DNA of 64,000 nucleotides, from positions 80,966 through 144,965 of the forward strand of contig MFRN01000043.1 of assembly GCA_001784585.1 (NCBI GenBank). Reading direction: 5' to 3'. Shown here piece after piece: positions 2,946 to 33,035 of this stretch (position 1 is the stretch's first letter; each line of letters starts with the position of its first letter). The notes beneath the pieces are model-generated. The model saw only the letters and a program-made list of their open reading frames with translations. It was not told the origin of the DNA and made no database searches. Both the position numbers and the translations under genes were made by a program. The stretch comes from Candidatus Melainabacteria bacterium RIFCSPLOWO2_02_FULL_35_15 (lineage in GTDB: Bacteria; Cyanobacteriota; Vampirovibrionia; 2-02-FULL-35-15).

Positions 2946-3684
2946 GTTTCATAAATTCTTCAAAGTTTAAACTGGCACCACCTACTAATCCGCCATCAAT
3001 ATCCGGGTATTTTATATGTTCGCCAAAATTATCTGACTTAACGCTGCCACCGTATAGAATTCTTACAGTTTCAGAAATTTGAGGGGTACTTTTTTCTTTT
3101 ATTGTACTTCTAATCATTTTTATTATTTTGTTTGCATCTTCACCACTACAGATTTTTCCTGTCCCGATTGCCCAGACAGGTTCATATGCAATAATTAGTT
3201 TTTCAATATCAGCACTGTTTAGATCTTTAATACCTTCAAGTACCTGATTTTTAACCTGGCTTTCAGCTTCGCCTTTTTCTCTGATTTTTAAATCTTCTCC
3301 TACACAAAACACTGGTGTAAGTCCAAATTTGAGTGCAGCTTTAATTTTTAGATTTACATCTTTATCACTTTCGTTAAAATATTGCCGTCTTTCGCTATGT
3401 CCGATTATCACCATTTCAATATGCAGGTCTTTTAACATTTTAGGAGAGACTTCCCCTGTATATGCTCCTTCTTCTTTATAGAACATATTTTGAGCACCTG
3501 TTTTGATATGAGGTGTATCTTTTAAGATATTGCTTATGGTTAAGAGATAAACAGATGGCGGACAAACAGTTATTTCAGCAGGTCGTTCAACTTTTATAGA
3601 ACTTTTTAATTTAAAGGTTAAATCCTGTGCATCAGCCAGACTTAAGTTCATTTTCCAGTTTCCAATGATTATTTTATTTCGCAT
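2893..3684 (-). CDS. tpiA: Triosephosphate isomerase
   Basis: IIGNWKMN motif near the N-terminus, catalytic IIGHSERR, and YGGSV near the C-terminus. Confidence 0.95.
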   Translation of the reverse strand: MRNKIIIGNWKMNLSLADAQDLTFKLKSSIKVERPAEITVCPPSVYLLTISNILKDTPHIKTGAQNMFYKEEGAYTGEVSPKMLKDLHIEMVIIGHSERRQYFNESDKDVNLKIKAALKFGLTPVFCVGEDLKIREKGEAESQVKNQVLEGIKDLNSADIEKLIIAYEPVWAIGTGKICSGEDANKIIKMIRSTIKEKSTPQISETVRILYGGSVKSDNFGEHIKYPDIDGGLVGGASLNFEEFMKLIDLASNAHSQVQSHSV

Positions 3685-3712
3685 AAGGAGATATTATATA
3701 ATATAAATCCGT

Positions 3713-3934
3713 ATGGAACCAGAATCTAAAATAAAACTAGACAATATTATTAAAGAACTTACAGGTTTTCTTGAAAGAGACTTTTCATCACGGTTTAGAA
3801 ACTTGACCAATAAAGAAGACAGACAGCTCTTTTTCTTAGCAAAAATACTTACACAGCTAAAGCAAATTTCCAACGAATCCGGAAATAAAGACAAAAAAAT
3901 AGTTCGCTTTCCAGCTTTGCAGAGAATTAAGTAA
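3713..3934 (+). CDS. Small hypothetical protein (73 aa)
   Basis: Only ORF in an otherwise non-coding 425-bp gap. No recognisable motif. Confidence 0.25.
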   Translation: MEPESKIKLDNIIKELTGFLERDFSSRFRNLTNKEDRQLFFLAKILTQLKQISNESGNKDKKIVRFPALQRIK

Positions 3935-4108
3935 ATTAGGCGCTGCCTTAGCTATGTTACTAAGTCTCATCTGACTAACTTACAAAGAAAGGTTTTGTCT
4001 GGTTTATCCAGCAAAACCTGAAAAATGACACAAAAGGCAGACTGCGAGCACTTTGCAAAGCCCGACAAGCGAGGTACGAAGCAAGGAGGGCGGTAGGCAA
4101 AAACTAAA

Positions 4109-5185
4109 TTAGTGGACAGTGCTTAATTCAAGTTGTTTATTTACAGCATTAAGCATTAAATCCGGAGTAACCTCCAGGCATTCAGGTGTTTTACAGGATT
4201 CTTTTCTCTTGTCAAATAAACAAGGCCTGCATTCCAGATTATCTGCATGTATAGCAAGGAATCTTGGATCCTCTGGTAATAGCTTTTTAGGATCAGTCGG
4301 TCCAAAAAATGCTACAAGTTTTTTCCCCAGTGCCACAGCTATATGCATCGGGGCAGAATCTACACAAACCAGCAGATCTGAAGAACTTATTAAAGCAGCA
4401 AGTTTTTCAATTGACAAATCAAATGAGCTAAAGTCAAAGAAATTTTTAGGCTTTGCAAAAAAAGAAAGTTTCTTGTGGATTTCAGCAATTGTTTCAGTAT
4501 CATCTTTTCCGCCAAGAAGAATTACAGTGTTATCATGATTTTCAAGTAGCTTCTCAATCAAGACAGCCCAATTTTTTGCTGCCCACCCCTTTAAAATATT
4601 TTTTTTAATACTCAGTTTACTTACTCCAGGATGAATAAATATTTTTTTTGCAAAATATCTTTCTTTTATTCTTGGATTTAAGGTTTCTTTTGCCCATTCG
4701 ATTAATGCAGGAGTCAGTTTGATTTCAGGCATCAGATACTTGCCATGAATTGTTTTTTTTATATCCGGCAACGCTGGCGTAAGTAATTCAGCAAACATAT
4801 TAGGTATATATTGAGTTGTATTTGGTTTTATGGGATCTGTTAAAAATAATTTGCTAAAAATCCCTTTATAAAAACCAATTTTGATTTCAGCATTACTTAA
4901 AAGAGCAACTATATTAGACTTATACGAGGAACCAGTTAAGATCAGGTATTTATAATATCGTGCTCTCAGTTCCTCTCTTAACTTAAAAATATTCAGATTT
5001 TTTTCTTTGAAGTCAAAAGCTCTAATTTTTCTGTATAAATGTGTCAGTTCCCCGATAATTACACTTCTTGGTTCACAAATTAAATCAATTTGATAATCGC
5101 TAAAATTTTCCTTAAAAATTTTTACTGTAGGTAAAAGGAGAATTTGATCCCCAATTCCTCCTGCATTGACAAATAAAGTCCTCAT
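4109..5185 (-). CDS. Glycosyltransferase family 9 (LPS heptosyltransferase-like)
   Basis: N-terminal LFVNAGGIGDQILLLP, the GT9 signature. The C-terminal region (..GPTDP..) is typical of RfaF/RfaC. The track ORF starts at a TTG at 5200. The internal ATG (MRTLFVNAGG..) at 5185 is the more plausible start. Confidence 0.8.
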   Translation of the reverse strand: MRTLFVNAGGIGDQILLLPTVKIFKENFSDYQIDLICEPRSVIIGELTHLYRKIRAFDFKEKNLNIFKLREELRARYYKYLILTGSSYKSNIVALLSNAEIKIGFYKGIFSKLFLTDPIKPNTTQYIPNMFAELLTPALPDIKKTIHGKYLMPEIKLTPALIEWAKETLNPRIKERYFAKKIFIHPGVSKLSIKKNILKGWAAKNWAVLIEKLLENHDNTVILLGGKDDTETIAEIHKKLSFFAKPKNFFDFSSFDLSIEKLAALISSSDLLVCVDSAPMHIAVALGKKLVAFFGPTDPKKLLPEDPRFLAIHADNLECRPCLFDKRKESCKTPECLEVTPDLMLNAVNKQLELSTVH

Positions 5186-5216
5186 AATGGTTCTAAACAA
5201 TTATTTTTATATTGTT

Positions 5217-5244
5217 GTAGAGACGTTATGCATAACGTCTCTAC
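5217..5244. promoter_or_regulatory. Perfect palindrome GTAGAGACGTT-ATGCAT-AACGTCTCTAC in the divergent region between the GT9 gene and the rplD operon promoter
   Basis: Read directly. 28-bp perfect inverted repeat immediately upstream of a TTGACA box. Confidence 0.45.
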
Positions 5245-5291
5245 TTATTGTTGACACAAGAACACTGAACATACACAAATAATAACAGGCG

Positions 5292-5320
5292 TTGACCAAA
5301 ATAGGATAGACCGTTAGAAT
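5292..5320 (+). promoter_or_regulatory. Candidate sigma-70 promoter for the rplD-led ribosomal protein operon (TTGACC-17-TAGAAT)
   Basis: Hexamers read directly: ttgacc, then aaaataggatagaccgt (17 nt), then tagaat, about 50 nt upstream of the rplD ATG. Confidence 0.4.
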
Positions 5321-5367
5321 TAACCCTTGCATCTTTAAAATATGATTGCAAAAACAAAAACAATCAA

Positions 5368-6033
5368 ATGGCAAAATCAACCGCACAACATAGTAATGAG
5401 AAATCGGGTAGTTCTAAGTTACCGGAAGTTTTTTTAGGATTAAAACCTAACAAGCATTTATTACACTTATCAGTTTTAAGACAATTAGACAATCAGAGAG
5501 CCGGTACTGCTTCTACAAAGACCAAAGCCGAAGTCCGTGGTGGTGGTAAAAAACCCTGGAAACAAAAAGGTACAGGCAGAGCAAGAGCAGGATCAATCAG
5601 ATCACCTTTATGGGTTGGTGGTGGAATTACATTTGGTCCAAAGCCCAGAAGCTTTAAGTCTAATCTGCCTCAAAAAGCTAGAAATTTGGCAGAATTGCAG
5701 GCAATAGTGACAAAATCAGATTCACTGGTTATATTAAAAAATTTGCCTGAAATAAAAGACTGTAAGACAAAAAACTTTTTAAGCGCTATTAATTCCCTCT
5801 CACTAACTGATACCCCGCTTTTAATACTAGCTTCAAAAAAAGAGCAACATTTTAACGAAGCAAGGAGAGCATCAAAAAACATACCAGACATTGTTGTTCG
5901 TGACTGTAATTTTGCAGGTGTGTGGGATATCTTAAAAGTAAAAACCCTGGCAATTACAGAACATGCCTTAAAAGAGCTTGAGAAACGCTTTTTGTGGGTT
6001 TTAAAAAATAAAAAAATGAAAACCGGTAAATAA
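5368..6033 (+). CDS. rplD: 50S ribosomal protein L4
   Basis: GGGKKPWKQKGTGRARAGSIRSPLWVGGGITFGPKPR signature. Confidence 0.95.
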   Translation: MAKSTAQHSNEKSGSSKLPEVFLGLKPNKHLLHLSVLRQLDNQRAGTASTKTKAEVRGGGKKPWKQKGTGRARAGSIRSPLWVGGGITFGPKPRSFKSNLPQKARNLAELQAIVTKSDSLVILKNLPEIKDCKTKNFLSAINSLSLTDTPLLILASKKEQHFNEARRASKNIPDIVVRDCNFAGVWDILKVKTLAITEHALKELEKRFLWVLKNKKMKTGK

Positions 6034-6038
6034 AAAAA

Positions 6039-6329
6039 ATGAATAAAAATCTTACAAATATTTTAGAACCAATTATTACTGAAAAGAGTACTGCTTTAAG
6101 TAAGCAAAATAAATACACGTTTAAGGTTGTAAAGGATGCTACGAAAGATTCAATAAGAAAATCATTTCTTGAAATTTTTCCAGACAGAAAAATTACTTCA
6201 ATAAAAACATTAAAGATAAAAGGGCATTCAAAGCGTACAAAATCCGGTATAAAGTTTCCGGCAGATGGAAAAAAAGTAATTATTACAACTCTTGGTCCAA
6301 AGATAGAATATTTTCCTGATATAGGATAG
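6039..6329 (+). CDS. rplW: 50S ribosomal protein L23
   Basis: Size and position between rplD and rplB. Has an L23-like N-terminus (ILEPIITEKST). Confidence 0.9.
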   Translation: MNKNLTNILEPIITEKSTALSKQNKYTFKVVKDATKDSIRKSFLEIFPDRKITSIKTLKIKGHSKRTKSGIKFPADGKKVIITTLGPKIEYFPDIG

Positions 6330-6350
6330 ATAAGAAAGGAGGTAGATAAT

Positions 6351-7175
6351 ATGCCAGTAAAAGAAAGAAGACCTTTAACTCCCGGACAAAGAGGAATGAA
6401 CTTTATTGATTTTAGTGAAATTACAAAATCAAAACCCCAAAAAAGTTTACTTTTGCCTTATAAGAGAGGTTCAGGCAGAAATAACCAGGGAAGGATTACT
6501 ACCAGACATAAAGGTGGCGGTCATAAAAAACATTACAGAATAATTGATTACAAACGTGATAAAGACAATATCCAGGCAAAGGTAGTTGCTTTTGAATATG
6601 ATCCAAACAGAAACTGTAGAATTGCATTGTTGATTTACAAAGACGGAGAAAAGCGTTATATTCTGGCTCCAAATAATTTAAAAGTAAGCGACTCTGTAAT
6701 GTCCGGTGAAAGTGTTGAGCAAAAAGTCGGGAATTCGATGCCGCTTAGAAATATTACAGTAGGTGAATTCGTTCACAATGTAGAACTTAAGCCACATGCA
6801 GGAGGCCAGCTTGTAAGAACTGCTGGTGGTGCTGCACAACTTTTAGCCAAAGAAAATGAAGATGCTACGCTAAGATTACCCTCCGGTGAAATGAGAAGGG
6901 TTAATATTAACTGTCGTGCTACTCTTGGTCAGTTAGGAAACCTGGATCATTTAAATGTGAAGCTTGGAAAAGCAGGCAGAAAGCGTTATTTAGGTATTAG
7001 ACCTACTGTAAGAGGATCTGCCATGAATCCTGTAGATCATCCGCACGGTGGTGGAGAAGGCAGATGTCCAATTGGTGGTCAGCCAAAAACACCATGGGGC
7101 AAACCAGCAATGGGATTAAAAACCAGGAAGCCAAAGTTATCAGACAGATATATAATTTCAAGGAGGAAGAAGTAA
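6351..7175 (+). CDS. rplB: 50S ribosomal protein L2
   Basis: 274 aa. Motifs [22 protein letters not shown] and [14 protein letters not shown]. Confidence 0.97.
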
Positions 7176-7181
7176 AAAAGT

Positions 7182-7505
7182 ATGGGAAGATCACTAAAAA
7201 AAGGGCCTTATGTTCATCCTTCATTATTAAGAAAAATTAGTGAAATGAATAAATCAGGAAAGAAGCAAGTCGTAAAATCCTGGAAACGTGCTTCTATGAT
7301 TATCCCTGAAATGATTGGGCACACAATAGCTGTTCATAATGGAAAAAAGTTTGTACCTGTTTATATAACTGAACAAATGATAGGTCACAGGCTGGGAGAA
7401 TTTTCAGCTACAAGATATTTTAGAGCACATTCAGGAGTTGCTAAGAAAACTGAAGAAGCAGGGACAGAAGGAGGAAGTGCAGCACCAGCACCAAAATCTG
7501 CCTAA
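7182..7505 (+). CDS. rpsS: 30S ribosomal protein S19, with a C-terminal extension of about 15 aa
   Basis: [18 protein letters not shown] followed by [23 protein letters not shown]. Extra Gly/Ala/Pro-rich tail. Confidence 0.95.
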
Positions 7506-7575
7506 TGTTAATAGGAGGAAATAGGGAAACAGAGAAAGAGAGCAAAAATTTAAGCTTAAATTTTTGCAATAAAAC

Positions 7576-8076
7576 ATGACTAAAGCAATAGCAAAATATA
7601 TAAGAATGTCACCGCGAAAATTACGCCGTGTAGTAAATGAAATTCGTGGTAAGGATACTAACTCTGCACAGGTAATACTTAAGTTTATGCCTTATGCCGG
7701 AGCAAGGGTAGTTGAAAAAGTACTAAAGTCTGCAGTTTCAAATGCAAAAGAAAATGAAAAATTAAATCCTGACGAATTAAGAATTACTAAAGCTTTTGTA
7801 GATCAGTCTACTACTCTTAGAAGATGGAGACCAATGTCGCGTGGCAGGGGATATCCGATTTTAAAAAGAACAAGCCATGTGACTTTAGAAGTTGGTGTAG
7901 ATGAAAATCTTATTAATAACATCAAACATACTCCGGCTAAAAAACAAGTTAAGCATGATCATGACCACGATCACAAACATGATCACGATGAAAAGTCTAA
8001 AGATGAAGCTGTCAAGAAAGAAAAGAAACAAGTAAAAGAAAAAACAAAGAAAGATAAAAAGAAGAAAGAGGAATAA
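7576..8076 (+). CDS. rplV: 50S ribosomal protein L22, with a ~55-aa C-terminal His-Asp repeat and Lys-rich extension
   Basis: L22 core (ARYIRMSPRKLRRVVNEIRGK..) followed by KHDHDHDHKHDHDEKSKDEAVKKEKKQVKEKTKKDKKKKEE. Confidence 0.9.
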   Translation: MTKAIAKYIRMSPRKLRRVVNEIRGKDTNSAQVILKFMPYAGARVVEKVLKSAVSNAKENEKLNPDELRITKAFVDQSTTLRRWRPMSRGRGYPILKRTSHVTLEVGVDENLINNIKHTPAKKQVKHDHDHDHKHDHDEKSKDEAVKKEKKQVKEKTKKDKKKKEE

Positions 8077-8079
8077 GCA

Positions 8080-8817
8080 ATGGGTCAGAAGACACATCCC
8101 AGAGGATTTAGATTAGGTGTTATCCAAACATGGGATTCGCAATGGTTTGCAGCACCTAAAGATTATGCAAATCTTGTTTATGAAGACAAACTTATTCGTG
8201 ATTTTATAAAGGGAAAACTTTTTAATGCTGGCATCAGTAAGATTGAAATATGGAGAAAAGCACAATTAATTCAAGTCAATATTCATTCAGTAAGACCAGG
8301 TATTGTAGTTGGTAAAGGTGGACAAGGTTTAGAAACACTAAAGAATCAGGTTACAGAATTAATAAACAGAAAAGATATTATTGTTCAGATTAATGTAATT
8401 GAAGTTGCAAAAGCTGATCTTGATGCACAGTTAACCGCAGAAGCCATTGCACAACAGCTAGAAAGACGGGTAGCTTTTAGAAAAGCAATGAAACAGGCAA
8501 TGCAAAGAGCAATGCGCTCAGGTGCAAAGGGTGTAAAGGTAATGGTTTCCGGGCGCCTTGGTGGAAATGACATTGCCAGGACAGAATGGCTTAGAGAAGG
8601 AGCTATACCTCTTCATACTTTAAGAGCAGATATTGATTATGGACTTGCAACTGCAAAAACAATATTTGGAATTATTGGAGTGAAAACATGGATTTATAAA
8701 GGGATTCTTGCACCCGGTGAAGTAGCTCAAAGAAATGTTAAATTGGTTTCGAATCTTGATGGCGAAGAAGATGATACTCAGCAAAGAAGAAGAAGGAAAA
8801 AGAGAGGCGAACAGTAA
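8080..8817 (+). CDS. rpsC: 30S ribosomal protein S3
   Basis: [14 protein letters not shown]-terminus, KH domain, charged C-terminal tail. Confidence 0.95.
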
Positions 8818-8823
8818 AGAAAA

Positions 8824-9246
8824 ATGTTAGTGCCAAGACAGACAAAATTCAGGAAGCAAATGCGCGGCAGAATGACCGGAAAAGAGTCACGTGGTGTAAG
8901 ACTTCACTATGGTGAATATGGACTTCAGGCCCTGGCTCCAGCCTGGATTTCTTCAAAACAGCTGGAAGCAGCCAGAAAAGCTATGGTTAGGAGTATTAAA
9001 AGAGGTGGGAAAATTTGGATAATGGTTTTTCCGGATAAACCGGTTACTAAAAAACCTGCCGAGGTAAGAATGGGTTCTGGTAAAGGTAACCCTGAATTCT
9101 GGGTAACTGTTGTAAGACCAGGCCGAATCTTATTTGAAATGACAGGTGTTCCTAAAGATATTGCTGTTGAATCTTTGAGACTGGCATCTCATAAGCTTCC
9201 TATTAAGTGTCGAATTATAGAAAAGGGAGAGCATATTAAAGGATAA
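8824..9246 (+). CDS. rplP: 50S ribosomal protein L16
   Basis: [17 protein letters not shown]-terminus. Confidence 0.95.
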
Positions 9247-9249
9247 GTT

Positions 9250-9564
9250 ATGATGAAATTAGTTGAAATTAAAGAACTGCCAGTTGATGAGATTAGCGAT
9301 CAGCTAAAAAAATCACAACTAGAGCTTGTTAACCTAAAAATGAAATTTGCAAGCAGGCAGCTGGAAGATCCTTCTCAAATAAGAAAAAAAAGAAAGGAAA
9401 TTGCAAGGCTACATACTATAAAAACCCAAAAATTACATGAAGTTATCAGCGAACCTAAGACTGAAAAGGTTAAAAAAGTAAAAAAGAAAGTAGTAACTGA
9501 AACTTTTTCTAAATCTGAAAAGCCAAAACGTCAGACAAAGAAAAGGGGAAAACCGGAGACATAA
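9250..9564 (+). CDS. rpmC: 50S ribosomal protein L29, with a ~40-aa Lys-rich C-terminal extension
   Basis: The L29 core (ELxxLxxExxxLRF-like) occupies the first ~65 aa. The rest is a K/E-rich tail. Confidence 0.8.
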
Positions 9565-9565
9565 A

Positions 9566-9811
9566 ATGCCAAAGAAAGTTTTAAAGGGAAAGGTAGTAAG
9601 TGACAAAATGGATAAAACCATTGTTGTTGCCATTGAAAACAAACGACTTCATCCCAGGTATAAAAAACTTGTTTTAAAAACAAGAAAGTTTAAAGCACAT
9701 GATGAATCAAACCAGTGTAAAACAGGTGATGTGGTCGAAATCATAGAACATGTACCCATGAGCAAAACAAAAAGATGGTTACTGAAGGAGGTATTGGTGA
9801 AAGCTGACTAA
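9566..9811 (+). CDS. rpsQ: 30S ribosomal protein S17
   Basis: [29 protein letters not shown] pattern. Confidence 0.9.
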
Positions 9812-9840
9812 ACAAGATTTATTATGCTTTCATAATTAAA

Positions 9841-9868
9841 GGATTTGAGTGGTTTATCCACCAAATCC
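9841..9868 (+). promoter_or_regulatory. Hairpin element A (ggatttg-a-gtgg-TTTAT-ccac-caaatcc)
   Basis: 7+4 bp interrupted stem with a 5-nt loop. Second copy with compensatory stem changes at 3996-4023. Confidence 0.4.
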
Positions 9869-9887
9869 GATCAAACGTAAAGTAAGG

Positions 9888-9923
9888 ACGAAGGAAGCTT
9901 CAGCTTGTCTGAAGCTATAAAAA
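9888..9923 (+). promoter_or_regulatory. SD-hairpin-AUG leader module (GAAGG, then AAGCTTCAG-CTTGT-CTGAAGCT, then ATAAAAA, then ATG) upstream of rplN
   Basis: Read directly. One of four copies with a constant loop and co-varying stem. Confidence 0.55.
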
Positions 9924-10292
9924 ATGATACAACAAGAATCAAATTTAGAAGTAGCAGACAATACAGGCGCTAAAGCAGTGCGATGTATCAGAGTATTGAA
10001 AGGTGGTAATTCCCGCTATGCAGGAATTGGGGATTTGATTATTGGTGTGGTAAAAGATGCTCTTCCAAATATGCCTGTAAAAGAGCATGAAATTGTAAGA
10101 TGCGTAATAGTAAGGACTAAAAAGACTTTAAGCAGAAATGACGGAAGTAAAATCAGGTTTGATGAAAATGCAGTGGTAATTATTGATAAACAAAACAACC
10201 CTAGAGGCACACGTGTATTTGGTCCGGTAGCACGTGAATTAAGAGAAAAACAATTTATGAAAATTCTTTCTTTAGCACCGGAGGTTTTATAG
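9924..10292 (+). CDS. rplN: 50S ribosomal protein L14
   Basis: [18 protein letters not shown]-terminus. Confidence 0.97.
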
Positions 10293-10303
10293 AAAATTAA
10301 AAA

Positions 10304-10768
10304 ATGAGCGAGCAGTATATAAAAATAAATAGTAAAAATAAAAAACGCAGAGTTATTTTCTCCAAAGCACCTATTAAAGGACATCCTAAGAAAGGTGGCT
10401 TTTATATTGTCTCAGGTGCATTCCTTAAGAAAGATGCATCCAACCCAAGACCAAAATTACATATTAAAAGAGGTGATACTGTAATGATTATTTCCGGTCA
10501 GGACAAAGGAAAAACAGGTAAAGTAATTGCTGCATTTCCTCGTGAATCTAAAGTAATTATAGAAGGAGTAAATATAATTAAAAAACACCAGAAACCAAGA
10601 GGAGTTGGACAAGCTGGTGAAATTATTGAAAAAGAAGCTCCGATATTTGCATCAAAAGTAATGTACTATGATACGACGAAAAAAAAACCAACGAGAATTG
10701 GATATAAAATTTTAAAAGATGGGAAAAAGGTCAGGGTTTCAAAAGCTAGCGGGGAACAAATTGACTAA
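10304..10768 (+). CDS. rplX: 50S ribosomal protein L24, with an apparent N-terminal extension (start uncertain)
   Basis: KOW motif region [24 protein letters not shown] matches L24, preceded by ~50 extra basic residues in the longest ORF. Confidence 0.85.
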
Positions 10769-10773
10769 GTCTT

Positions 10774-11328
10774 TTGAGGTTAAATATGGCAAAAAATTTA
10801 AGAAAAGAATTTAAAACGAAAATTGCAAAAGACCTAATGAGCACATTAGGTTATAAAAATCAGCTTGAAGTTCCTATGCTAAAAAAGATTGTTGTAAATA
10901 TGGGTATGGGCGAAGCAATGTCCGATTCTAAGTATTTAGATAGTGGGCTTAATGACATGAAAACAATTACTGGTCAAAAGCCGCTAATTACAAGAGCAAA
11001 AAAATCTATTGCAACCTATAAAATCAGGGAAGGTGGCCCGGTTGGATGTATTGTTACTTTAAGAGGCCAAAGAATGTATGATTTCTTCAGTAAACTTGTG
11101 AATTTGGTACTACCCAGACTTAGGGATTTTAAAGGAGTTTCTCCAAAAAGCTTTGACGGGAGAGGAAGTTATAATTTAGGATTGAAGGAACAAATTGTTT
11201 TTCCTGAAATTAAATATGATAAGGTCGATAATGTAAGAGGAATGGATATTGCAATTGTTACAACTGCAAGGACAAATAAAGAGGGGCTGGAGCTTTTAAA
11301 AGCTTTAGGAATGCCTTTTAGGAAGTAG
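10774..11328 (+). CDS. rplE: 50S ribosomal protein L5
   Basis: L5 family motifs (..VPMLKKIVVNMG.. and ..RGMDIAIVTTA..). Confidence 0.95.
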   Translation: MRLNMAKNLRKEFKTKIAKDLMSTLGYKNQLEVPMLKKIVVNMGMGEAMSDSKYLDSGLNDMKTITGQKPLITRAKKSIATYKIREGGPVGCIVTLRGQRMYDFFSKLVNLVLPRLRDFKGVSPKSFDGRGSYNLGLKEQIVFPEIKYDKVDNVRGMDIAIVTTARTNKEGLELLKALGMPFRK

Positions 11329-11356
11329 TTTATGGGAAGTAATAAATTTATCACCT

Positions 11357-11428
11357 GCGGGTGTAATTCAGTGGTAGAATGCAAGCTTCCCAAGCTTGAC
11401 GTCGCGGGTTCAAATCCCGTCGCCCGCT
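11357..11428 (+). tRNA. tRNA-Gly (anticodon CCC)
   Basis: Cloverleaf read by hand. Acceptor stem GCGGGTG/CGCCCGC with discriminator U. Anticodon stem CAAGC/GCTTG with loop TTCCCAA. T-loop GGTTCAAATCC. Lies between rplE and rpsZ. Confidence 0.85.
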
Positions 11429-11547
11429 CATTTTTGCGGAGCAAAATGAGCGAGGTCCGCTCAGCATAGCTGAGCGACCCGCTATCCAGAGTCAGTGGTT
11501 AGTGGTCAGAAGTTAGAAGGAAACAAGGAGATAAGTTAAATAAAAAT

Positions 11548-11754
11548 ATGGCTAAATTATGCATGATTGAGAGAGAAAGGAAAAAAAGAATATTAGTCGC
11601 AAAAGGTAAATATCCTAAAATAGGACTTCATAACCGTTGCAGGAGCTGTGGCAGATCACGTGGTTATTATAGAGACTTTGGGCTTTGCAGACTATGTCTA
11701 AGAAAAATGGCACACATGGGATTATTGCCTGGTGTAACAAAAGCCAGCTGGTAG
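11548..11754 (+). CDS. rpsZ: 30S ribosomal protein S14, zinc-binding type Z
   Basis: [38 protein letters not shown]. The C4 zinc ribbon and the KASW end are typical of S14 type Z. Confidence 0.9.
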
Positions 11755-11783
11755 AGAAAAAAGAAGAGGTAAGGAAACAAAAA

Positions 11784-12185
11784 ATGTCTCATACAGATTC
11801 AATAAGTGATATGTTAACAAGGATTAGAAATGCAGTTCATGCAACACATGAAAGTGTTGAAATTCCATTATCCAAATTAAAAATACAGATTGCAGAAGTT
11901 TTGAAAAAAGAAGGATACATTAGTTCTTATGAACTTTTTGAATCAGATCCTGTAAAAAAGAATATTAAAGTATTTTTAAAATATGGTCCACGAGGTGAAA
12001 AGTTAATTACAGGAATTCAAAAAGTTTCCAAGCCGGGTTTAAGAGTTTATACAAAATCAAAAGATGCAAAAAGAGTTCTGGATGGTCTGGGAATTTATAT
12101 TATTAGTACAAGCAGGGGCCTAATGACTGATCGACAGGCCAGGAAAGAAAAAGTTGGAGGAGAAGTTCTTTGTAAGGTCTGGTAA
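11784..12185 (+). CDS. rpsH: 30S ribosomal protein S8
   Basis: [18 protein letters not shown]-terminus. The track ORF starts upstream at 11685 and overlaps rpsZ. The internal ATG at 11784 is in the same frame and gives a canonical 133-aa S8. Confidence 0.9.
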
Positions 12186-12209
12186 GTTAGAGATCAGAGG
12201 AAATAAAAT

Positions 12210-12770
12210 ATGTCGAGAATAGGAAAAAATCCAATAAACATACCGGATAAAGTAGAAATTACTATTACTGATACTCTTGGCGGACAAATCGTTAGAGTTA
12301 AAGGCCCTAAGGGTGAGCTCGAAAGCAAGTTTAGAAAAGAAATTAAAATTACTAAAGAAGACAAAAAAATTATTTTTAACAGGGAAAATGATGAAAAATT
12401 AGTAAGAAGTCTTCATGGTTTAATCAGATCATTAGTACAAAATATGATTCTTGGCGTTACAGAAGGATTTAAAAAAGAATTAGATATTGTAGGTGTAGGT
12501 TATAAAGCTCAGCTTCAGGGGACAAAACTGGTTTTACAAATGGGGTACAGTCATCCGGTTGAAGTTACTCCTCCAAACAAAGAAACAAAAATTGAAGTAG
12601 ATAAAACCCAGACTCACCTTACCATTACTGGAATCAGCAAGCAGACTGTCGGGGACTTAGCTGCTTATATCAGATCTGTTAGATTTCCTGAACCGTATAA
12701 AGGTAAAGGCATTAAGTATTCTGATGAAAAAATCAGAAGAAAGGTTGGAAAATCTGCTGCCAAAAAATAG
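12210..12770 (+). CDS. rplF: 50S ribosomal protein L6
   Basis: MSRIGKNPI N-terminus. Two-domain L6 pattern. Confidence 0.95.
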   Translation: MSRIGKNPINIPDKVEITITDTLGGQIVRVKGPKGELESKFRKEIKITKEDKKIIFNRENDEKLVRSLHGLIRSLVQNMILGVTEGFKKELDIVGVGYKAQLQGTKLVLQMGYSHPVEVTPPNKETKIEVDKTQTHLTITGISKQTVGDLAAYIRSVRFPEPYKGKGIKYSDEKIRRKVGKSAAKK

Positions 12771-12785
12771 GCTAAGGATAAATCA

Positions 12786-13154
12786 ATGATAAATCAAACT
12801 TTAAAAAAAGAAAGAACAAGGAAAAGACACCAGAGAATTAGAAATAAGATTATGGGAACCAAGGAACGCCCAAGACTTTGTATTTATAAATCTAATAAGC
12901 ATATTTATGCTCAGTTAATTGATGATGTTGAAGCAAAGACTTTGCTGTTCTGCTCTACAGTTCAACCATCTTTAAGGTCAAAGATTAAATCAACCTGGAC
13001 AAAAGAAGCAGCTAAGATAGTTGGAGAAATGATTGCTAAAAGTGCTACAGAGAAAGGAATTAAAGATGTTGTATTCGATCGCGGCGGTAACAGATATCAT
13101 GGTAAAGTTATAGCTTTTGCAGAAGGAGCAAGAGGTGCGGGTTTAAAATTTTAG
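12786..13154 (+). CDS. rplR: 50S ribosomal protein L18
   Basis: ..RPRLCIYKSNKHIYAQLIDD.. and C-terminal DRGGNRYHGKV. Confidence 0.9.
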   Translation: MINQTLKKERTRKRHQRIRNKIMGTKERPRLCIYKSNKHIYAQLIDDVEAKTLLFCSTVQPSLRSKIKSTWTKEAAKIVGEMIAKSATEKGIKDVVFDRGGNRYHGKVIAFAEGARGAGLKF

Positions 13155-13175
13155 AAACTTATTAGAGAGGGAAAT

Positions 13176-13946
13176 ATGTCAGAAGAAGAAGAAGAAAAAA
13201 AAGAAGTTAATATTAATGAAGAAAAACAGATTTCTTCAGAAAGTACAGAACAGATAACTGTTCCAGAAACTTCAGAACCAGTGAAAGTTGCTGATGCTAC
13301 TGATGTTCCTGCTTCAGCTGAAGCTGAGGAAGATGAAGTCGATGAACTAACTGGTATTGAAGAGGCTTCTGAACAGGAAATATTCCAAAAAGTTACAAAA
13401 AAAGAAACCAGAAAAAAAAGAAAAAAGCGTAGTGAAAGAGGTCAGGATAAAGGTAAAGAAGCCTCTGAATGGATTGAAAAAGTTGTTCAGATTAGAAGAG
13501 TTACCAAGGTTGTAAAGGGGGGTAAAAAATTAAGTTTTAGAGCAGTTGTTGTAGTTGGGAATGCTAAAGGGCAGGTAGGCGTAGGAGTTGGTAAAGCACT
13601 TGAAGTTATAAGTGCTATTCAAAAAGCTGTTGTTGATGCAAAGAAAAATTTAATTCCAATTCCACTTATAAATTCCACTATTCCTCATCAGATTCTTGGT
13701 AGAGCAGGTGCTGCAAAAGTTCTCTTAAAACCTGCCAGAGAAGGTACTGGTATAAAAGCAGGTGGAGCTGCCAGAACAGTTCTTGAGTTAGGTGGAGTAG
13801 GTGACATTCTTTCAAAGTCATTAGGTTCACGTTCACCATTGAATGTAGCCAGAGCAACACTTAATGGTTTAACCAAGCTTAGACAATTTGGAGGTGTTGC
13901 ACAGCTTAGAGGAATGACTTTAAAAGAAATGATAGCAGCAAATTAG
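13176..13946 (+). CDS. rpsE: 30S ribosomal protein S5, with an ~85-aa acidic N-terminal extension
   Basis: S5 core (..[21 protein letters not shown]..) preceded by an E/D-rich low-complexity region ([22 protein letters not shown]..). Confidence 0.9.
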
Positions 13947-13955
13947 ATATAACAG

Positions 13956-14444
13956 GTGGTAGGGATTATGCAGTTAAGTGAATTAAAATCAGCTAAGGGT
14001 TCAAGAAGAAAAAGAAAAACTGTAGGTCGTGGTCCGGGTTCTGGTCATGGTAAGACTTCCTGCAGAGGAAATAATGGTCAGGGGCAAAGAGCAGGAAAAG
14101 GTCACAGAGCTGGTTTTGAAGGTGGTCAAACCCCAATCTACAGAAGACTTCCAAAATATCAGGTAAATGAGAGACCAAACAGATTAATATGGGCAGTTGT
14201 AAATCTAAAGGATTTGGAAGATCTTTCAGGTTCTAAGGTTATAACTCCGGAATTGCTTTTAGAAAAAAGCATAATAGATAATTTAAATGCTGGCTTAAGA
14301 GTCCTGGGAGACGGTAATATAAATTTTTCTGCTACTATAAAAGCACATTATTTTTCACATTCAGCAAAAGAAAAGATTGAAGCAGCTGGCGGTAAATGTG
14401 AATTAATAAATAACACTAAGGACAATGGCAAATCAGGCAAGTAA
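13956..14444 (+). CDS. rplO: 50S ribosomal protein L15
   Basis: L15 N-terminal pattern. Directly follows rpsE, with no rpmD (L30) gene in between. Confidence 0.9.
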   Translation: MVGIMQLSELKSAKGSRRKRKTVGRGPGSGHGKTSCRGNNGQGQRAGKGHRAGFEGGQTPIYRRLPKYQVNERPNRLIWAVVNLKDLEDLSGSKVITPELLLEKSIIDNLNAGLRVLGDGNINFSATIKAHYFSHSAKEKIEAAGGKCELINNTKDNGKSGK

Positions 14445-15888
14445 ATCAGGTAAAGAAGCAGATCTTTCGACATTTTTAGAAATGTTCCAGTCTGCTGGCT
14501 TAATGAAAAGAATAGTTTTTACTATTTCTATGCTGGCTATTTACAGACTTGGTGTTCACATACCTTTAATAGGTGTTAACCATGAGCTTTTAAAGAGATC
14601 AAATGTTTTAACAAGTGGTCTTTTAGGACTGGTAGATTTATTTGCCGGTGGTGCTCTTAGTGCACTGTCTATATTCGCACTTGGTATTGGCCCTTATATT
14701 ACATCTTCCATTATTATGCAGTTAATGACTGAAGTAATTCCAGCTCTAAAAAATATACAGAGAGAACAGGGTGAGCAGGGAAGAAAACAATTTCAGCAAA
14801 TTACACGGAGAACTACAGTAGCACTGGCAATTATTCAGTCACTTGCTTTAGCCAGATTCCTGGATGTAGCAGGTGTTGCCCCGGCTGGAACACCGGCATT
14901 TTATTTAAATACTATTGTTATACTTACCTGCTCAAGTGTTTTTGTTATGTGGCTCGGAGAAGTCATTACTGAGCGTGGTATCGGGAACGGTGCTTCTATA
15001 TTGATTTTTATAGGGATTGCCTCGAGAATGCCTATTATGATTAGAGATACAATTACTGCTATGAATACAGGTTCGTCTCCTGCCTGGGGCGTTGCCACAT
15101 TGTTGCTTGTGTTCTGTTTGCTTGTATTTTTAATAATTTATATTCAGGAGGGTGCGAGAAAGATTTTAGTATTAGGTGCCAGGAGGCAAGCAGCTGGCGG
15201 GAGAGTAACTGCAGCACCGGATCACTATATGCCATTTAGAATTAATCCTGCAGGTGTTTTGCCTATTATTTTTGCAAGCTCTTTAATGTTCCTTCCATTA
15301 CAGCTTCTTGCTTTTGCAGGTCTTCAGGATAAATCTGTTTCAATTACTTTACGAGATCTCTTTACAAATACCCCGGGACTTGGTCAGCTTTCATTTGCAC
15401 TCTCGCAGATCAAAGTAGGAGAGAGTTATATTTTTGCTGATTTTGGAAACTGGCTGTCACTCCAGGTTGAATATCTCTTTAGAACCGGGCACTGGCAACA
15501 TTCACTGGTTTATTTCTTTTTAATTCTTTTATTTTCATATTTTTATGCTTCGATAATTTTAAATCCGCGTGAAGTAGCAGAAAACCTGAAAAAAAACGGA
15601 TCTGCCATTCAGGGTGTTAAACCAGGGAAAGCAACCAGTGATTACCTCGATATTGTAATTAACCGGATAGTTTTTGTCGGTGCCATTGCGATTGGACTTG
15701 TGGCTGTAATTCCAATCCATGTAGAACAATTATGCCAGGTAGCAACTCTTGGTGGTTTGGGAAGCACTTCACTTATAATTCTTGTAGGGGTTGCTATAGA
15801 TACCAGAAACCAGATTATTGCATATGCTCAAACTCACAGATATCAAACAAGGAGCATTTTAAGTTTTTCGTCTAAGAAAACCTTATGA
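14425..15888 (+). CDS. secY: Preprotein translocase subunit SecY
   Basis: About 10 TM helices. SecY motifs (..GIMPYITASIIMQL..-like IGPYITSSIIMQLM). Confidence 0.95.
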   Translation: MANQASKSGKEADLSTFLEMFQSAGLMKRIVFTISMLAIYRLGVHIPLIGVNHELLKRSNVLTSGLLGLVDLFAGGALSALSIFALGIGPYITSSIIMQLMTEVIPALKNIQREQGEQGRKQFQQITRRTTVALAIIQSLALARFLDVAGVAPAGTPAFYLNTIVILTCSSVFVMWLGEVITERGIGNGASILIFIGIASRMPIMIRDTITAMNTGSSPAWGVATLLLVFCLLVFLIIYIQEGARKILVLGARRQAAGGRVTAAPDHYMPFRINPAGVLPIIFASSLMFLPLQLLAFAGLQDKSVSITLRDLFTNTPGLGQLSFALSQIKVGESYIFADFGNWLSLQVEYLFRTGHWQHSLVYFFLILLFSYFYASIILNPREVAENLKKNGSAIQGVKPGKATSDYLDIVINRIVFVGAIAIGLVAVIPIHVEQLCQVATLGGLGSTSLIILVGVAIDTRNQIIAYAQTHRYQTRSILSFSSKKTL

Positions 15889-16676
15889 GTTTTGTTGAAA
15901 AAATAAATAGTAGATTTTCCGACAAACTGTTTCAAATTAATAATTTTATTTATACCCTGGTAGTAAATTTGCTGGATGCATTTTTTATAATTTTTAGAGA
16001 TTTGCCGCGGGGTAAGTTTTATTATGAAAATTTTCTTGAGAGCTTAAGAAAAATCGCCTGGAACTGTCTGCCCATTGCTACGCTTACTATATCTGCAAGT
16101 GCTTTTATTTACTCTATTCATGGTGCTCCTGAAATGTCAAAAAGAGGTTTAACTGATTATTTAGGCGGGCTTGTGGCACTGGCGTTAATTCGTGAAAGTG
16201 TCCCTGTTATGGCAGCACTGGCAATTGTTTCCCAGTATTCATCTGGTATGACTGCTCAGATAGGTTCTATGAAGGTAACCGAACAATTAGATGCCATGAA
16301 AGTTTTAAAAGTTTATCCCAGTGCATACTTGCTTGTACCTATGTTGTTAGCAGGCTTAATTGGTTTTCCGATTGTAATCATGATTTGTATTTTAGTAGGG
16401 ATATTTATAAATTATCTGGTTTCAAATGTATTAATTGATATCAGTTATCATCTTTATTTTTCATCAATTTTAAGAGCTGTAGTTATGAAGGATATTTTCC
16501 TTGCATTGATTAAAGCATCCATGTTCGGATTTTTTATTGCTTTAATAAGTTATATTTGTGGCATTCTTACTCAGGGCGGAGCTAAAGCAGTTGGAAATTC
16601 TACCAGGCTCTCAGTAGTGATTAATTTTATTTTAGTAGTAATTCTGGATTATATAATTACAGCGTTGTGGTTATAG
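15885..16676 (+). CDS. MlaE/Ttg2B-family ABC transporter permease (lipid-trafficking-type permease)
   Basis: 263 aa, multi-TM, with a conserved MlaE-like core (..LIRESVPVMAALAIVSQYSSGMTAQIGSMKVTEQLDAMKVLKVYP..). Overlaps the secY stop by 4 nt. Confidence 0.75.
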   Translation: MSFVEKINSRFSDKLFQINNFIYTLVVNLLDAFFIIFRDLPRGKFYYENFLESLRKIAWNCLPIATLTISASAFIYSIHGAPEMSKRGLTDYLGGLVALALIRESVPVMAALAIVSQYSSGMTAQIGSMKVTEQLDAMKVLKVYPSAYLLVPMLLAGLIGFPIVIMICILVGIFINYLVSNVLIDISYHLYFSSILRAVVMKDIFLALIKASMFGFFIALISYICGILTQGGAKAVGNSTRLSVVINFILVVILDYIITALWL

Positions 16677-16681
16677 TTATG

Positions 16682-17350
16682 CTATGCTACATTCCATTTC
16701 TTAATCGATGGCTTAATTATAAGCATTGTCCCTTCTGCACCAGGAACAGCTCCTTTAACTAATAAAAGATTTTTTTCTTTATCAAAATCTATAACTTCCA
16801 GATTTCTAACTGTTACTTCTTCATTTCCCATACGGGACGGCATGTTTTTCCCTGGCAATACTCTTCCCGGAAAAGTATGTGCACCGATAGAACCTGGAAG
16901 TCTGTGTGACTTAGAGCCATGCGTTTCAGGCCCTCTGTGTTTGTTATGCAGTTTAACCATACCCTGGAAACCTTTTCCTATAGATATCCCGGAGACATCT
17001 ACTTTTTCTTTTAAAACAATTATTTTTGAATGATCTAAAACTTGTCCAACTTTGTATGAATCTAATTCTTCAGGTTTTACTCTAAACTCCTTTAAATAGC
17101 TAAGATTTGGAAGATTTTTCTTTTTTAAGTTTCCAAGTTTTGGTTTATTTAAGTGTTTATCTTTTTTTACATTTGCCCCGATCTGTACTGCTGAATAACC
17201 GTCTCTTACAGGTATTTTAATATCAGTAATAATATTTTCAGCCAGTTCTATAACTGTTACAGGAACAGCATCTCCATCCTGGTTAAAAAACTGTGTCATG
17301 CCAAGCTTTTTACCTAATATCTCTATTCTGAATCTGGATAGCTGCGTCAT
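16682..17350 (-). CDS. rplC: 50S ribosomal protein L3
   Basis: ..[10 protein letters not shown].. N-terminal region and a C-terminal region typical of L3. Confidence 0.95.
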
Positions 17351-17676
17351 AATTTTAGTTCTATATCTACTCCGGCAGGTAAGTCTAATCTGGTCAGAGC
17401 ATCTGTAGTTTCATTTGTCGGATTTTCAATGTCAACAAGTCTCTTATGAATCCTGATTTCAAAATGTTCTCTGGATTTTTTATCTACATGTGGAGATCTG
17501 TTTACACAATAGATATGACGATCTGTCGGTAGATAAATAGGACCTGTTATAGATGCACCTGTACGGTTAGCTGCATCTACAATCTGATCACATGAAGCAT
17601 CTAATGCTCTATGATCGTATCCTTTTAAGCGAATACGAATCCTGTTTTTCAGAGATTGTTGTGCTGTTTTTGACAT
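17347..17676 (-). CDS. rpsJ: 30S ribosomal protein S10
   Basis: ..[21 protein letters not shown].. S10 signature. Confidence 0.95.
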
Positions 17677-17712
17677 TTTTTATAGCTCCAGACAAGCTGG
17701 AGCTTTCCTCTC
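17677..17712 (-). promoter_or_regulatory. SD-hairpin-AUG leader module upstream of rpsJ (minus strand: GAGG, AAAGCTCCAG-CTTGT-CTGGAGCT, ATAAAAA, ATG)
   Basis: Reverse complement of 17677-17712 read directly. Same module as at rplN, accB and the acyl-CoA synthetase gene. Confidence 0.55.
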
Positions 17713-17780
17713 GATCTTCCTTTGTGATTGATCACATTTGCCGAATGAATCGGACAAATGCTCTCTCTTTAATAAGCATA

Positions 17781-27073: not shown

Positions 27074-27143
27074 CATGTAACCTACGGTTACATGAAAAGA
27101 TTAAATTTTTCTCATATTCGTGAGATGTAACCTGGGGTTACAT
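27074..27143. promoter_or_regulatory. Two operator-like palindromes, ATGTAACC-N3-GGTTACAT, centred ~50 bp apart, upstream of comM
   Basis: catgtaacc-tac-ggttacatg at 27074-27094 and atgtaacc-tgg-ggttacat at 27125-27143, read directly. Confidence 0.4.
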
Positions 27144-27171
27144 GTAGAGACTTACCTCGGCAAGTCTCTAC
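27144..27171. repeat. GTAGAGACTT-N8-AAGTCTCTAC hairpin/palindrome at the 3' end of cdd
   Basis: Perfect 10-bp arms. Shares the GTAGAGAC arm sequence with the palindromes at 5217, 32887 and 33036. Confidence 0.4.
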
Positions 27172-28672: not shown

Positions 28673-28705
28673 AATGGAGGCAGCTTGTCTGGAGCGAAAT
28701 AAAAA
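28673..28705 (+). promoter_or_regulatory. SD-hairpin-AUG leader module (shortened copy: GGAGG, CAG-CTTGT-CTGGAGC, GAAATAAAAA, ATG) upstream of accB
   Basis: Read directly. Same conserved CAGCTTGTCTG core as the other three copies. Confidence 0.45.
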
Positions 28706-32986: not shown

Positions 32987-33035
32987 TTGTTTCGTATTAT
33001 CCTTTCTTAAAAATCTGTAAAACTAATTTTAGCGT

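Follow-up and report, generated by a model that had tools for sequence, protein, structure and literature searches.

Why does the normally very short spacer between the ribosomal protein genes rpsQ and rplN measure 112 nt in Candidatus Melainabacteria bacterium RIFCSPLOWO2_02_FULL_35_15, and what is the hairpin that stands in it? We addressed this question in a stretch of 64,000 nt (the window; contig MFRN01000043.1, positions 80,966 to 144,965), whose source type is a groundwater Melainabacteria metagenome-assembled genome. Melainabacteria are the non-photosynthetic sister group of Cyanobacteria. The hairpin, here called HP1, is the 5' module of a dispersed, modular repeat of ~95-110 nt, the cassette, which is lineage-specific to a groundwater Melainabacteria clade. 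The cassette contains a second hairpin (hp2); both hairpins are kept by compensatory substitution, and the repeat is oriented with transcription. We lean towards the view that it may act as a functional RNA leader, i.e., an element of intercistronic spacers or 5' untranslated regions (UTRs), that spread by mobility.

HP1 and the cassette in the window

HP1 occurs in three places in the window, the first of them between the genes for S17 and L14:

9566-9811, plus strand: rpsQ (S17), the upstream gene, from its open reading frame (ORF) translation; protein 100% identical to S17 of Candidatus Melainabacteria bacterium RIFCSPLOWO2_02_FULL_35_15
9841-9868, plus strand: HP1 copy 1, GGATTTGAGTGGTTTATCCACCAAATCC, read as GGATTTG-A-GTGG-TTTAT-CCAC-CAAATCC
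9924-10292, plus strand: rplN (L14), the gene downstream of the cassette, from its ORF translation
3991-4018, plus strand: HP1 copy 2, GGTTTTGTCTGGTTTATCCAGCAAAACC, read as GGTTTTG-T-CTGG-TTTAT-CCAG-CAAAACC, within a miniature inverted-repeat transposable element (MITE)
17734-17761, minus strand: HP1 variant GCATTTGTCCGATTCATTCGGCAAATGT, read as GCATTTG-T-CCGA-TTCAT-TCGG-CAAATGT, before rpsJ

When each 28-mer was folded alone, copies 1 and 2 adopted the same geometry, i.e., 7 bp, a 1-nt bulge on the 5' side, 4 bp and a 5-nt TTTAT loop. They differ at 5 of 28 positions, which are two compensatory pairs and the bulge base. The folding energies were -13.7 kcal/mol for copy 1 and -13.3 kcal/mol for copy 2 (z = -4.7 and -4.95, respectively), and none of 200 shuffles matched the energy of either copy. 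A degenerate HP1 28-mer with up to 3 mismatches occurred twice in the window and not at all in 100 dinucleotide-preserving shuffles, and the 11-mer TGGTTTATCCA common to both copies did not reach significance alone in the window. The whole spacer, folded as 134 nt, yielded -30 kcal/mol (z = -3.65). A first-pass annotation of the window, made from the letters alone, had described copies 1 and 2 as a hairpin family with compensatory changes; the geometry, the fold energies with their shuffles and the covariation of all 11 HP1 pairs agree with that description. Its sequence and geometry of copy 2 were correct, whereas its position for this copy, 3996-4023, was shifted by 5 nt from the true place, 3991-4018. 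The third HP1 copy, in which the inner stem and the loop are altered, had been overlooked; the loop sequence could not have revealed it.

HP1 does not stand alone. From 5' to 3', the cassette consists of a left box, HP1, a GATC/purine-rich middle segment ending in GGAAG, hp2 with its CTTGT loop and an A-rich tail, followed by the ATG. Its parts in the window are as follows:

9826-9840, plus strand: left box GCTTTCATAATTAAA, adjoining the 5' side of HP1; partly conserved as CTTRYA-N5-7-TAWA, then GG
9869-9896, plus strand: middle segment GATCAAACGTAAAGTAAGGACGAAGGAA, with GATC and the purine-rich, Shine-Dalgarno (SD)-like AAGGA/GGAAG; conserved in the free alignment A1
9897-9915, plus strand: hp2, GCTTCAG-CTTGT-CTGAAGC, with a 7-bp stem and the conserved CTTGT loop
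9916-9923, plus strand: A-rich tail TATAAAAA, ending at the rplN ATG (9924)
17677-17775, minus strand: second full cassette, filling the tuf-rpsJ spacer and ending at the rpsJ ATG; 78.9 bits, E = 7e-22
17734-17761, 17704-17733, 17685-17703 and 17677-17684, minus strand: HP1, middle, hp2 (GCTCCAGCTTGTCTGGAGC) and tail (TATAAAAA) of the rpsJ cassette
52311-52355, plus strand: partial cassette without HP1 (GGAATTGACCGACGGAA, hp2 GCTGCAGCTTGTCTGCAGC, ATTAAAAAA), with an ATG at 52356; 42.6 bits
28673-28705, plus strand: degenerate hp2-type module (GGCAGCTTGTCTGGAGC, GAAATAAAAA, ATG); 20.5 bits, E = 0.003

HP1 and the SD-hairpin-AUG module therefore form one composite unit, as had been proposed earlier, with hp2 (9897-9915) starting 28 nt past HP1. 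In an anchored alignment of 39 upstream flanks, the left box showed A at -1 in 37, T at -4 in 30 and T at -11 in 30. The covariance model R1, described below, matched the window five times: at 9829-9937 (plus strand, 110 bits), 17663-17773 (minus strand, 79 bits), 3979-4040 (plus strand, 43 bits, the HP1 of the MITE), 52277-52368 (plus strand, 43 bits) and 28604-28717 (plus strand, 20.5 bits, a remnant).

Family size and covariation

We scanned JGI metagenome contigs with the pattern TTTGNNTGGTTTATCCANCAAA; fetched loci, here and below, bear L-numbers. The scan returned 65 stretches, and 43 of them together with the two window copies gave 45 copies with a GG..CC outer stem. These split into type A (cassette; 31 copies, including window copy 1) and type B (MITE; 14 copies, including window copy 2), and in type B copies HP1 is embedded in long near-identical flanks. 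Several type A copies share a single large contig; Ga0209515_10000016 and Ga0209515_10000051, for example, carry four each. Pattern matches without the outer stem, many of them in apparent coding sequence (CDS), were taken as chance; none of the seven viral-contig matches has the outer stem, and they were set aside as chance or coding.

RNAalifold predicted exactly HP1 (11 pairs) and hp2 (7 pairs) from 27 type A copies; in type A, the middle has the consensus GATC followed by the purine-rich GATCAAGCGAAAGG-ATTGATCGATGGAAG and hp2 has the general form GCNNNAG-CTTGT-CTNNNGC. The covariance model R1 was then run on 440 kb of sequence and gave 73 hits at the cut-off of E < 1e-6. The covariance-model search suggested by the first-pass annotation thus uncovered a many-copied family, not a pair of copies. 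In the alignment of R1 hits, 99.3% of HP1 cells were paired and all 11 pairs had changes on both sides; for hp2, 97.3% of cells were paired, with double changes in 6 of 7 pairs. None of 500 shuffles attained these values, and sliding the partner column by 1-3 positions lowered pairing to 17-51%. Being fitted to the model, this alignment is biased towards the structure; the picture from the free alignment A1 is the same.

The scan pattern fixed TGG/CCA of the inner stem and the TTTAT loop, its own inner stems being CTGG/CCAG and GTGG/CCAC. Off-pattern copies within the fetched loci had the further inner stems CCGA/TCGG, GTGA/TCAC, CCAG/CTGG and CCAA/TTGG, and at least eight inner-stem variants were seen altogether. 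The loops were TTTAT, TTCAT, TTAAT and TTTAC; the outer stems were GGATTTG, GGTTTTG, GCATTTG and GGTTCTG, each with its matching partner; and the bulge on the 5' arm was T in 42, C in 8 and A in 7 copies. HP1 thus has an invariant outer stem, a near-invariant loop and a freely covarying inner stem, and from this pattern it looks as if HP1 is recognised for both its shape and its sequence. Relative to the rest of the cassette, the orientation of the asymmetric loop was fixed in all but 2 of ~60 copies. G-U wobbles numbered 14 on the cassette strand, compared with 6 that would wobble on the opposite strand, which gives modest backing to the RNA sense strand.

These data also bear on the idea that HP1 works as duplex DNA and is bound by a dimeric protein, for example as an operator or a recombination site. 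The 28 bp are a near-perfect palindrome with strongly conserved outer half-sites (GGATTTG/CAAATCC), as such a protein would need. The inner stem, by contrast, varies freely in identity while remaining complementary, the bulge arm and the loop orientation are fixed to the extent given above, and G-U wobbles are tolerated. We consider a duplex site highly improbable; HP1 is probably not one. A dif/Xer-like site, suggested by the 11-5-12 geometry, was rejected in view of the many copies per genome and the freely varying inner arms.

Some copies depart from the standard make-up. Loci L121 and L131 have tandem hp2, other copies consist of hp2 only, and HP1 is flipped relative to its own cassette (loop ATAAA, bulge on the opposite arm) at L134 ~2957-3008 and L146 ~1929-1980. 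Two further helices were considered. A GATC..GATC helix in the middle segment had 72% of its cells paired, which is weak support, and was kept out of R1; a helix pairing the left flank with the middle, which would close HP1, appeared in 19 of 41 single-sequence folds, showed no covariation in any register and was dropped. As a side observation, the middle consensus GAAAGGAAUUGAUC (A1 columns 41-70; 9869-9896 in the window) is complementary to the 3' tail of 16S rRNA (GAUCACCUCCUUU) at 11 of 13 positions; this tail is the canonical one and may not be that of the host.

Placement of the cassettes

The placement census comprised 40 distinct full cassettes. Twenty-two end 8-31 nt before the start of a same-strand ORF, and the distance from hp2 to the ATG was 8-15 nt in 17 of these 22. 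Three end just before a same-strand tRNA gene, five are reverse-complemented against the 3' ends of tRNA genes, and the other ten have a longer leader, a non-ATG start or tandem cassettes, or face a convergent gene. The upstream neighbour was co-directional in 23 of 34 scorable cases, its stop codon often lying 5-40 nt before HP1, and the entire intercistronic spacer is frequently the cassette. The downstream genes are functionally unrelated; they encode L14, S10, L11, aspartate kinase, PurE, PurB (adenylosuccinate lyase), a class A penicillin-binding protein (PBP1), a PilB-type ATPase, a GH116 glycosidase, a thioredoxin-domain protein and hydrolases. The cassette is therefore no peculiarity of the spc operon.

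Of the two full cassettes in the window, which are 8 kb apart, one is on the plus and the other on the minus strand, each sense to its own gene; the cumulative GC skew rises across the whole window. Because these opposite-strand cassettes sit within a monotonic skew, cassette orientation follows transcription, not replication. In a separate arrangement (L131, 3440-3850), a tRNA-Arg(TCT) gene is preceded by a forward cassette and followed by reverse-complement cassette modules, so that leader and trailer could pair over tens of nt.

Occupancy and conservation among relatives

A search with L14 among GTDB representative genomes returned nothing above 70% identity; the best matches came from other phyla and were useless for spacer comparison. 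We used as relatives the strains and species that share the gene order DJ-1 - ribosomal protein cluster - tuf, recovered by exact-protein look-up, and compared occupancy within one conserved gene order of 20 kb. The rpsQ-rplN spacers and the occupied junctions were as follows:

rpsQ-rplN spacer with full cassette: window type, 112 nt; L156, 107 nt
rpsQ-rplN spacer with other content: L084, 59 nt, second hairpin only; L085, 50 nt, a different G+C-rich hairpin
rpsQ-rplN spacer without cassette: L161, 24 nt; L157, 17 nt; L163, 13 nt; L162, 11 nt; L082, 9 nt
rpsQ-rplN genes overlapping: L159 and L160, -4 nt
Window: cassettes at rpsQ-rplN and tuf-rpsJ
L156: cassettes at rpsQ-rplN and rplO-secY (partial)
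L157: cassette upstream of rplD (partial)
L159: cassette at tuf-rpsJ, and two weak matches
L161: cassette upstream of the glycosyltransferase (GT9) gene
L162: cassette at tuf-rpsJ (partial)
L163: none

The rpsQ-rplN spacer measures -4 to 24 nt in most relatives, which confirms the earlier suggestion that a normally very short spacer has been enlarged by insertion. The L14 proteins of L082, L084 and L085 are identical to that of the window; because the spacer differs despite these identical proteins, the HP1 segment was acquired, or lost several times, within a short evolutionary time. The tuf-rpsJ spacer behaves likewise, being 9 nt in L156 and L157 and holding a cassette in the window and L159. 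Insertion polymorphism of the cassette was thus found at rpsQ-rplN, tuf-rpsJ, rplO-secY, upstream of rplD and upstream of the GT9 gene. Position 1397-1446 of L085 holds an unrelated G+C-rich hairpin, GACGCCCCGGCGGGGCGTC, in the same rpsQ-rplN spacer, which hints at a hotspot of hairpin insertion at this junction.

Between lineages, cassettes occupying the same junction were only ~69% identical, compared with 81-89% for the adjacent CDS, and resembled random paralogous copies. As they are no closer to each other than random paralogues, independent gain or replacement at recurrent junctions is suggested by these comparisons. Orthologous cassettes behaved differently: those before PBP1 were 97% identical, compared with 78% for the CDS and 71% for the upstream flank, and those before aspartate kinase were 90% identical, compared with 85% for the CDS. 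Some cassettes are under constraint, because these orthologous pairs exceed the adjacent CDS in identity.

An HP1 copy carried by a MITE

HP1 copy 2 belongs to a different unit, whose parts in the window are:

3940-4104, plus strand: MITE carrying HP1 copy 2; 165 bp, no ORF
3932-3939: left target-site duplication TAAATTAG, containing the stop codon of a 73-aa gene
4105-4112: right target-site duplication TAAATTAG, containing the stop codon of a minus-strand glycosyltransferase-9 gene

The left end of the element is GTTACTGCCTAGC in other copies and has diverged to GCGCTGCCTTAGC in the window, and the right end is GGCGGTAGGCAAAAAC; as terminal inverted repeats, GTTACTGCCTAGC and the reverse complement of the right end, GTTTTTGCCTACC, agree at ~10 of 13 positions. 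L156, L157 and L159 have an empty site, at which the 73-aa gene adjoins the convergent glycosyltransferase-9 gene; in L156 it reads AATAAAATAAATTAGTGAGC, with TAAATTAG present once. The 8-bp duplication in the window restores both flanking stop codons. Other copies have different 8-bp direct repeats (ATTTTATC, GAACTTTA, TATAATTG and CTAAAGTG), and the copies occupy at least 10 distinct insertion sites with a median pairwise identity of 97%. The element at 3940-4104 is a textbook MITE. No longer element with the MITE ends, i.e., no candidate autonomous insertion sequence, was found in ~0.5 Mb of sequence searched. Within the MITE, HP1 is preceded by aCTTACAaagaaa, which matches the left box of type A; because the left box precedes HP1 in both, the module common to cassette and MITE is the left box plus HP1.

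The cassette itself has no terminal inverted repeats, its left end (left box and HP1) not being the reverse complement of its right end (hp2 and tail). Its flanks are A/T-rich, with TAWA on the left and TATAAAAA on the right. A possible duplication of AAAAAGAA was noticed in L084 relative to the empty site of L082; the pattern was inconsistent across copies.

Functional leader or selfish element

Placement, turnover and the MITE raise the question of whether the cassette does anything for its host. It may be a purely selfish small mobile element without host function, whose hairpins serve or result from transposition (e.g., through single-stranded DNA intermediates) and whose start-proximal sites reflect an A/T-rich target preference together with host tolerance. 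Syntenic genomes differ in which cassettes they carry, a proven MITE also bears the HP1 module, and modules are duplicated or missing in some copies, all of which such an element would show; the pneumococcal elements BOX, RUP and SPRITE were deemed parasitic on similar grounds (PMC3049150). A selfish element would account less readily for five other observations. Orientation tracks the downstream gene and not one DNA strand, the spacing from hp2 to the ATG is tight, diverged copies retain both stems by compensatory changes, an orthologous cassette is more conserved than the neighbouring CDS, and most cassettes lie upstream of genes or inside operons, unlike BOX, RUP and SPRITE with their bias towards convergent genes. 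We regard the purely selfish explanation as possible yet doubtful.

The cassette as a functional RNA leader spread by mobility, towards which we lean from these sequence comparisons, has points against it that should be set out together. The five cassettes reverse-complemented against tRNA 3' ends suit a selfish element at least equally, as do the copies adjoining convergent gene ends. About 10 of the 40 cassettes have no gene start directly downstream, some facing convergent gene ends; these copies and the patchy occupancy fit a selfish element at least equally well. The tRNA genes that are preceded by cassettes need no ribosome-binding site. The ~69% identity at shared junctions means that conservation is not uniform. 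Most HP1 copies were fetched by a pattern with a fixed loop and partly fixed stems, so that these positions seem more conserved in sequence than they are, and a wobble count of 14 against 6 is weak. No transposition signature, in the form of terminal inverted repeats or a target duplication, was demonstrable for the cassette itself, and the conserved left box is not accounted for. All of these weigh against the leader function that we propose.

Promoter and terminator tests

The first-pass annotation had placed an spc-type promoter and/or an attenuator in the rpsQ-rplN spacer, and the spacer is indeed unusually long and structured. Weak sigma-70-like matches lie upstream of HP1 in the window-specific flank, namely TAAACA-16-CATAAT at 9809-9836 and GTGAAA-17-TATTAT at 9797-9825, each matching 9 of 12 positions. 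The scanned region contained 30 promoter-like matches compared with 42.6 in its shuffles; because it has fewer such matches than expected, the two 9/12 matches carry no weight. In L156, the rpsQ stop codon lies only 16 nt from HP1. Across copies, the conserved part shows no sigma-70 -35/-10 pair at workable spacing: the conserved upstream positions -1, -3, -4 and -11 form no TTGACA-17-TATAAT arrangement, and with the left box as "-35" and the loop TTTATC as "-10" the fit was poor, the essential A at position 2 being absent.

As for an attenuator, HP1 on the plus strand is followed by GATCAAACG, which is not a U-tract, and a terminator scan of 3000-17000 on both strands called no site at 9841-9868 or 3991-4018. 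Moreover, the cassette precedes at least 25 unrelated genes or tRNAs and is missing from this same spacer in most close relatives, so that it is not operon-specific. We give hardly any credence to a promoter or attenuator of the spc operon at this place.

HP1 might instead be a terminator or 3'-end hairpin that acts on the opposite strand or in both directions. Read on the minus strand, HP1 runs into T-rich sequence, namely TTTCTTTGTAAG for the MITE copy and TTTAATTATG at 9840. The MITE copy, in this reading, lies 91 nt past the stop codon of the glycosyltransferase-9 gene, and T makes up 7 of the 9 nt after it; reverse cassettes follow tRNA genes. On the other side, the scan made no call on either strand, the minus-strand tail of cassette copies varies and is no more than A/T-rich, the minus strand at 9841, inside a ribosomal protein operon, has nothing that would need terminating, and orientation tracks the downstream sense gene. 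Such a terminator is very unlikely.

Known RNA families did not account for HP1. At the gathering threshold, Rfam 15 returned only tRNAs and 5S rRNA from the whole window; around both copies, a search with E <= 10 that included the ribosomal-protein leaders gave a maximum of 18.2 bits (E >= 0.47), compared with gathering scores of 38-100 bits. A lone CRISPR repeat was rejected, its sole support being an Rfam score of 13.6 bits (E = 8.5); the 28-mer is palindromic end to end.

Proposed role of the cassette

If the cassette is a functional leader, it would be co-transcribed as an intercistronic spacer or 5' UTR. The candidates for an SD sequence are GGAAG, directly 5' of hp2, and AAGGAA, which lies still further 5', and no SD-like sequence was found in the 8-15 nt between hp2 and the AUG. 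Folding of hp2 would bring the upstream GGAAG within the normal SD-AUG distance, giving a split ribosome-binding site, and the A-rich tail would leave the start codon unpaired. This layout is provided by the hp2 part and not by HP1: GGAAG abuts hp2, which stands at the short distance from the ATG reported in the census. HP1 itself could be a hairpin that protects or processes an RNA end, or the binding site of a lineage-specific factor, and it may uncouple the downstream cistron from the upstream one. Its location right after the upstream stop codon fits a hairpin for 3'-end protection or processing, or a protein handle that uncouples cistrons. The cassettes would have spread as small non-autonomous mobile units. 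If this holds, a mobile element could alter, at many genes simultaneously, both the start of translation and the coupling within operons.

In a more specific and rather speculative form, the cassette would be a portable gene-start unit, in which a structured ribosome-binding site (GGAAG, hp2 and A-rich tail) is combined with a sequence-specific handle (HP1 and left box) for one RNA-binding protein or RNase. We hold this full version to be unlikely. If true, a host-wide handle would define transcript ends and uncouple cistrons, and this would explain the recurrent independent gains at rpsQ-rplN and tuf-rpsJ.

Comparison with known repeat systems

In a few cultured groups, small dispersed structured repeats have been described, e.g., REP/BIME, BOX, Correia elements and MITEs. 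REP sequences are imperfect palindromes of 20-40 nt with a conserved 5' GTAG, are linked to RAYT and cluster at gene 3' ends; REP/BIME of enterobacteria and pseudomonads lie between cistrons and can stabilise the upstream mRNA. HP1 resembles them as a short imperfect palindrome that is extragenic and intercistronic and forms mosaics with conserved linker motifs. It differs in that it begins with GGAT, GGTT or GCAT and has no GTAG, and in that cassettes abut start codons. IS200/IS605-type elements and PATEs have similar subterminal hairpins at both ends and a strand bias tied to replication; in the cassette, HP1 and hp2 differ from each other in both sequence and geometry, and the window pair shows no such bias.

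In split ribosome-binding sites of the phage T4 gene 38 type, a hairpin between the SD sequence and the AUG joins them; the cases known to us are single genes. The cassette has the same GGAAG-hp2-AUG layout, which here is a portable repeated unit that also stands before tRNA genes.

Bacterial MITEs are non-autonomous transposable elements (PMC10969869, PMC2229807). The element at 3940-4104 is like them in its size, lack of an ORF, inverted ends, 8-bp duplications particular to each copy, empty site and ~97% identical copies; the cassette differs in having neither terminal inverted repeats nor a demonstrable target duplication. BOX elements are built as boxA-boxB(n)-boxC, and BOX, RUP and SPRITE are over-represented between convergent genes (PMC3049150). 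The cassette shares with these three a modular build, a narrow lineage, missing or repeated modules, strong predicted RNA structure and variable occupancy; they are also co-transcribed with neighbouring genes, and the cassette presumably resembles them in this respect. It has no sequence relation to them and is mostly sense, 8-15 nt before start codons, even in operons.

Correia elements of Neisseria (CREE/NEMIS) have 26-bp terminal inverted repeats, a TA target duplication and an IHF site, alter the expression of adjacent genes, and form RNA hairpins that are bound or cut by RNase III (PMC2649163). Like them, the cassette is a dispersed unit of ~100-150 nt that often stands just upstream of genes and is predicted to form RNA hairpins. 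Unlike them, it has no CREE inverted repeats, TA duplication or IHF site, and it forms two separate local stem-loops instead of a fold-back of the element ends. The cassette thus belongs to the small dispersed structured repeats and to no named family, with a modularity like that of BOX and a placement before genes like that of Correia elements. We found no description of such repeats (MITE, repeat or hairpin) from Melainabacteria in the literature.

Four things are unusual about the cassette: its sense placement a short, fixed distance ahead of start codons, ribosomal-protein operons included; its modular build; its two hairpins kept by compensatory change; and its apparent gain, more than once, at the same junctions. 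Long structured spacers in these genomes should accordingly not be taken for operon-specific regulators, and R1 lets annotators mask or label the cassettes.

Other features of the window

The S10 cluster is split, an arrangement conserved in relatives. rplD (5368) opens the plus-strand cluster after a divergent glycosyltransferase gene; tuf and rpsJ (17347-18995) lie on the minus strand downstream of mlaE, where rplC follows rpsJ in the syntenic relatives. A tRNA-Gly(CCC) gene at 11357-11429 stands between rplE and rpsN, its place being conserved in 6 of 6 syntenic relatives, and further hairpins follow it at 11430-11490. A solitary 5S rRNA gene lies at 33141-33256; no 16S or 23S rRNA was detected in the window.

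Several other hairpins were seen. GTAGAGACGTTATGCATAACGTCTCTAC (5217-5244, upstream of rplD) and GGAGACGTTGCATGCAACGTCTCC (~33034-33057, upstream of the 5S gene) have a common core, and this pair may be a third repeat family. A single spacer of 126 nt that separates minus-strand genes holds two similar hairpins, CATGTAACCTACGGTTACATG (~27077-27097) and ATGTAACCTGGGGTTACATG (~27125-27144). A 13-bp inverted repeat, GCTGGTTATCCCT/AGGGATAACCAGT (36105-36118 and 36239-36252), encloses ~120 nt between plus-strand genes, and the unit at 36105-36252 may be another small inserted element. Finally, an AT-rich hairpin of another kind, GCAAAAATTTAAGCTTAAATTTTTGC, immediately precedes the rplV ATG in the rpsS-rplV spacer (7506-7575, 70 nt); as called in L082, the two genes overlap by 4 nt instead.

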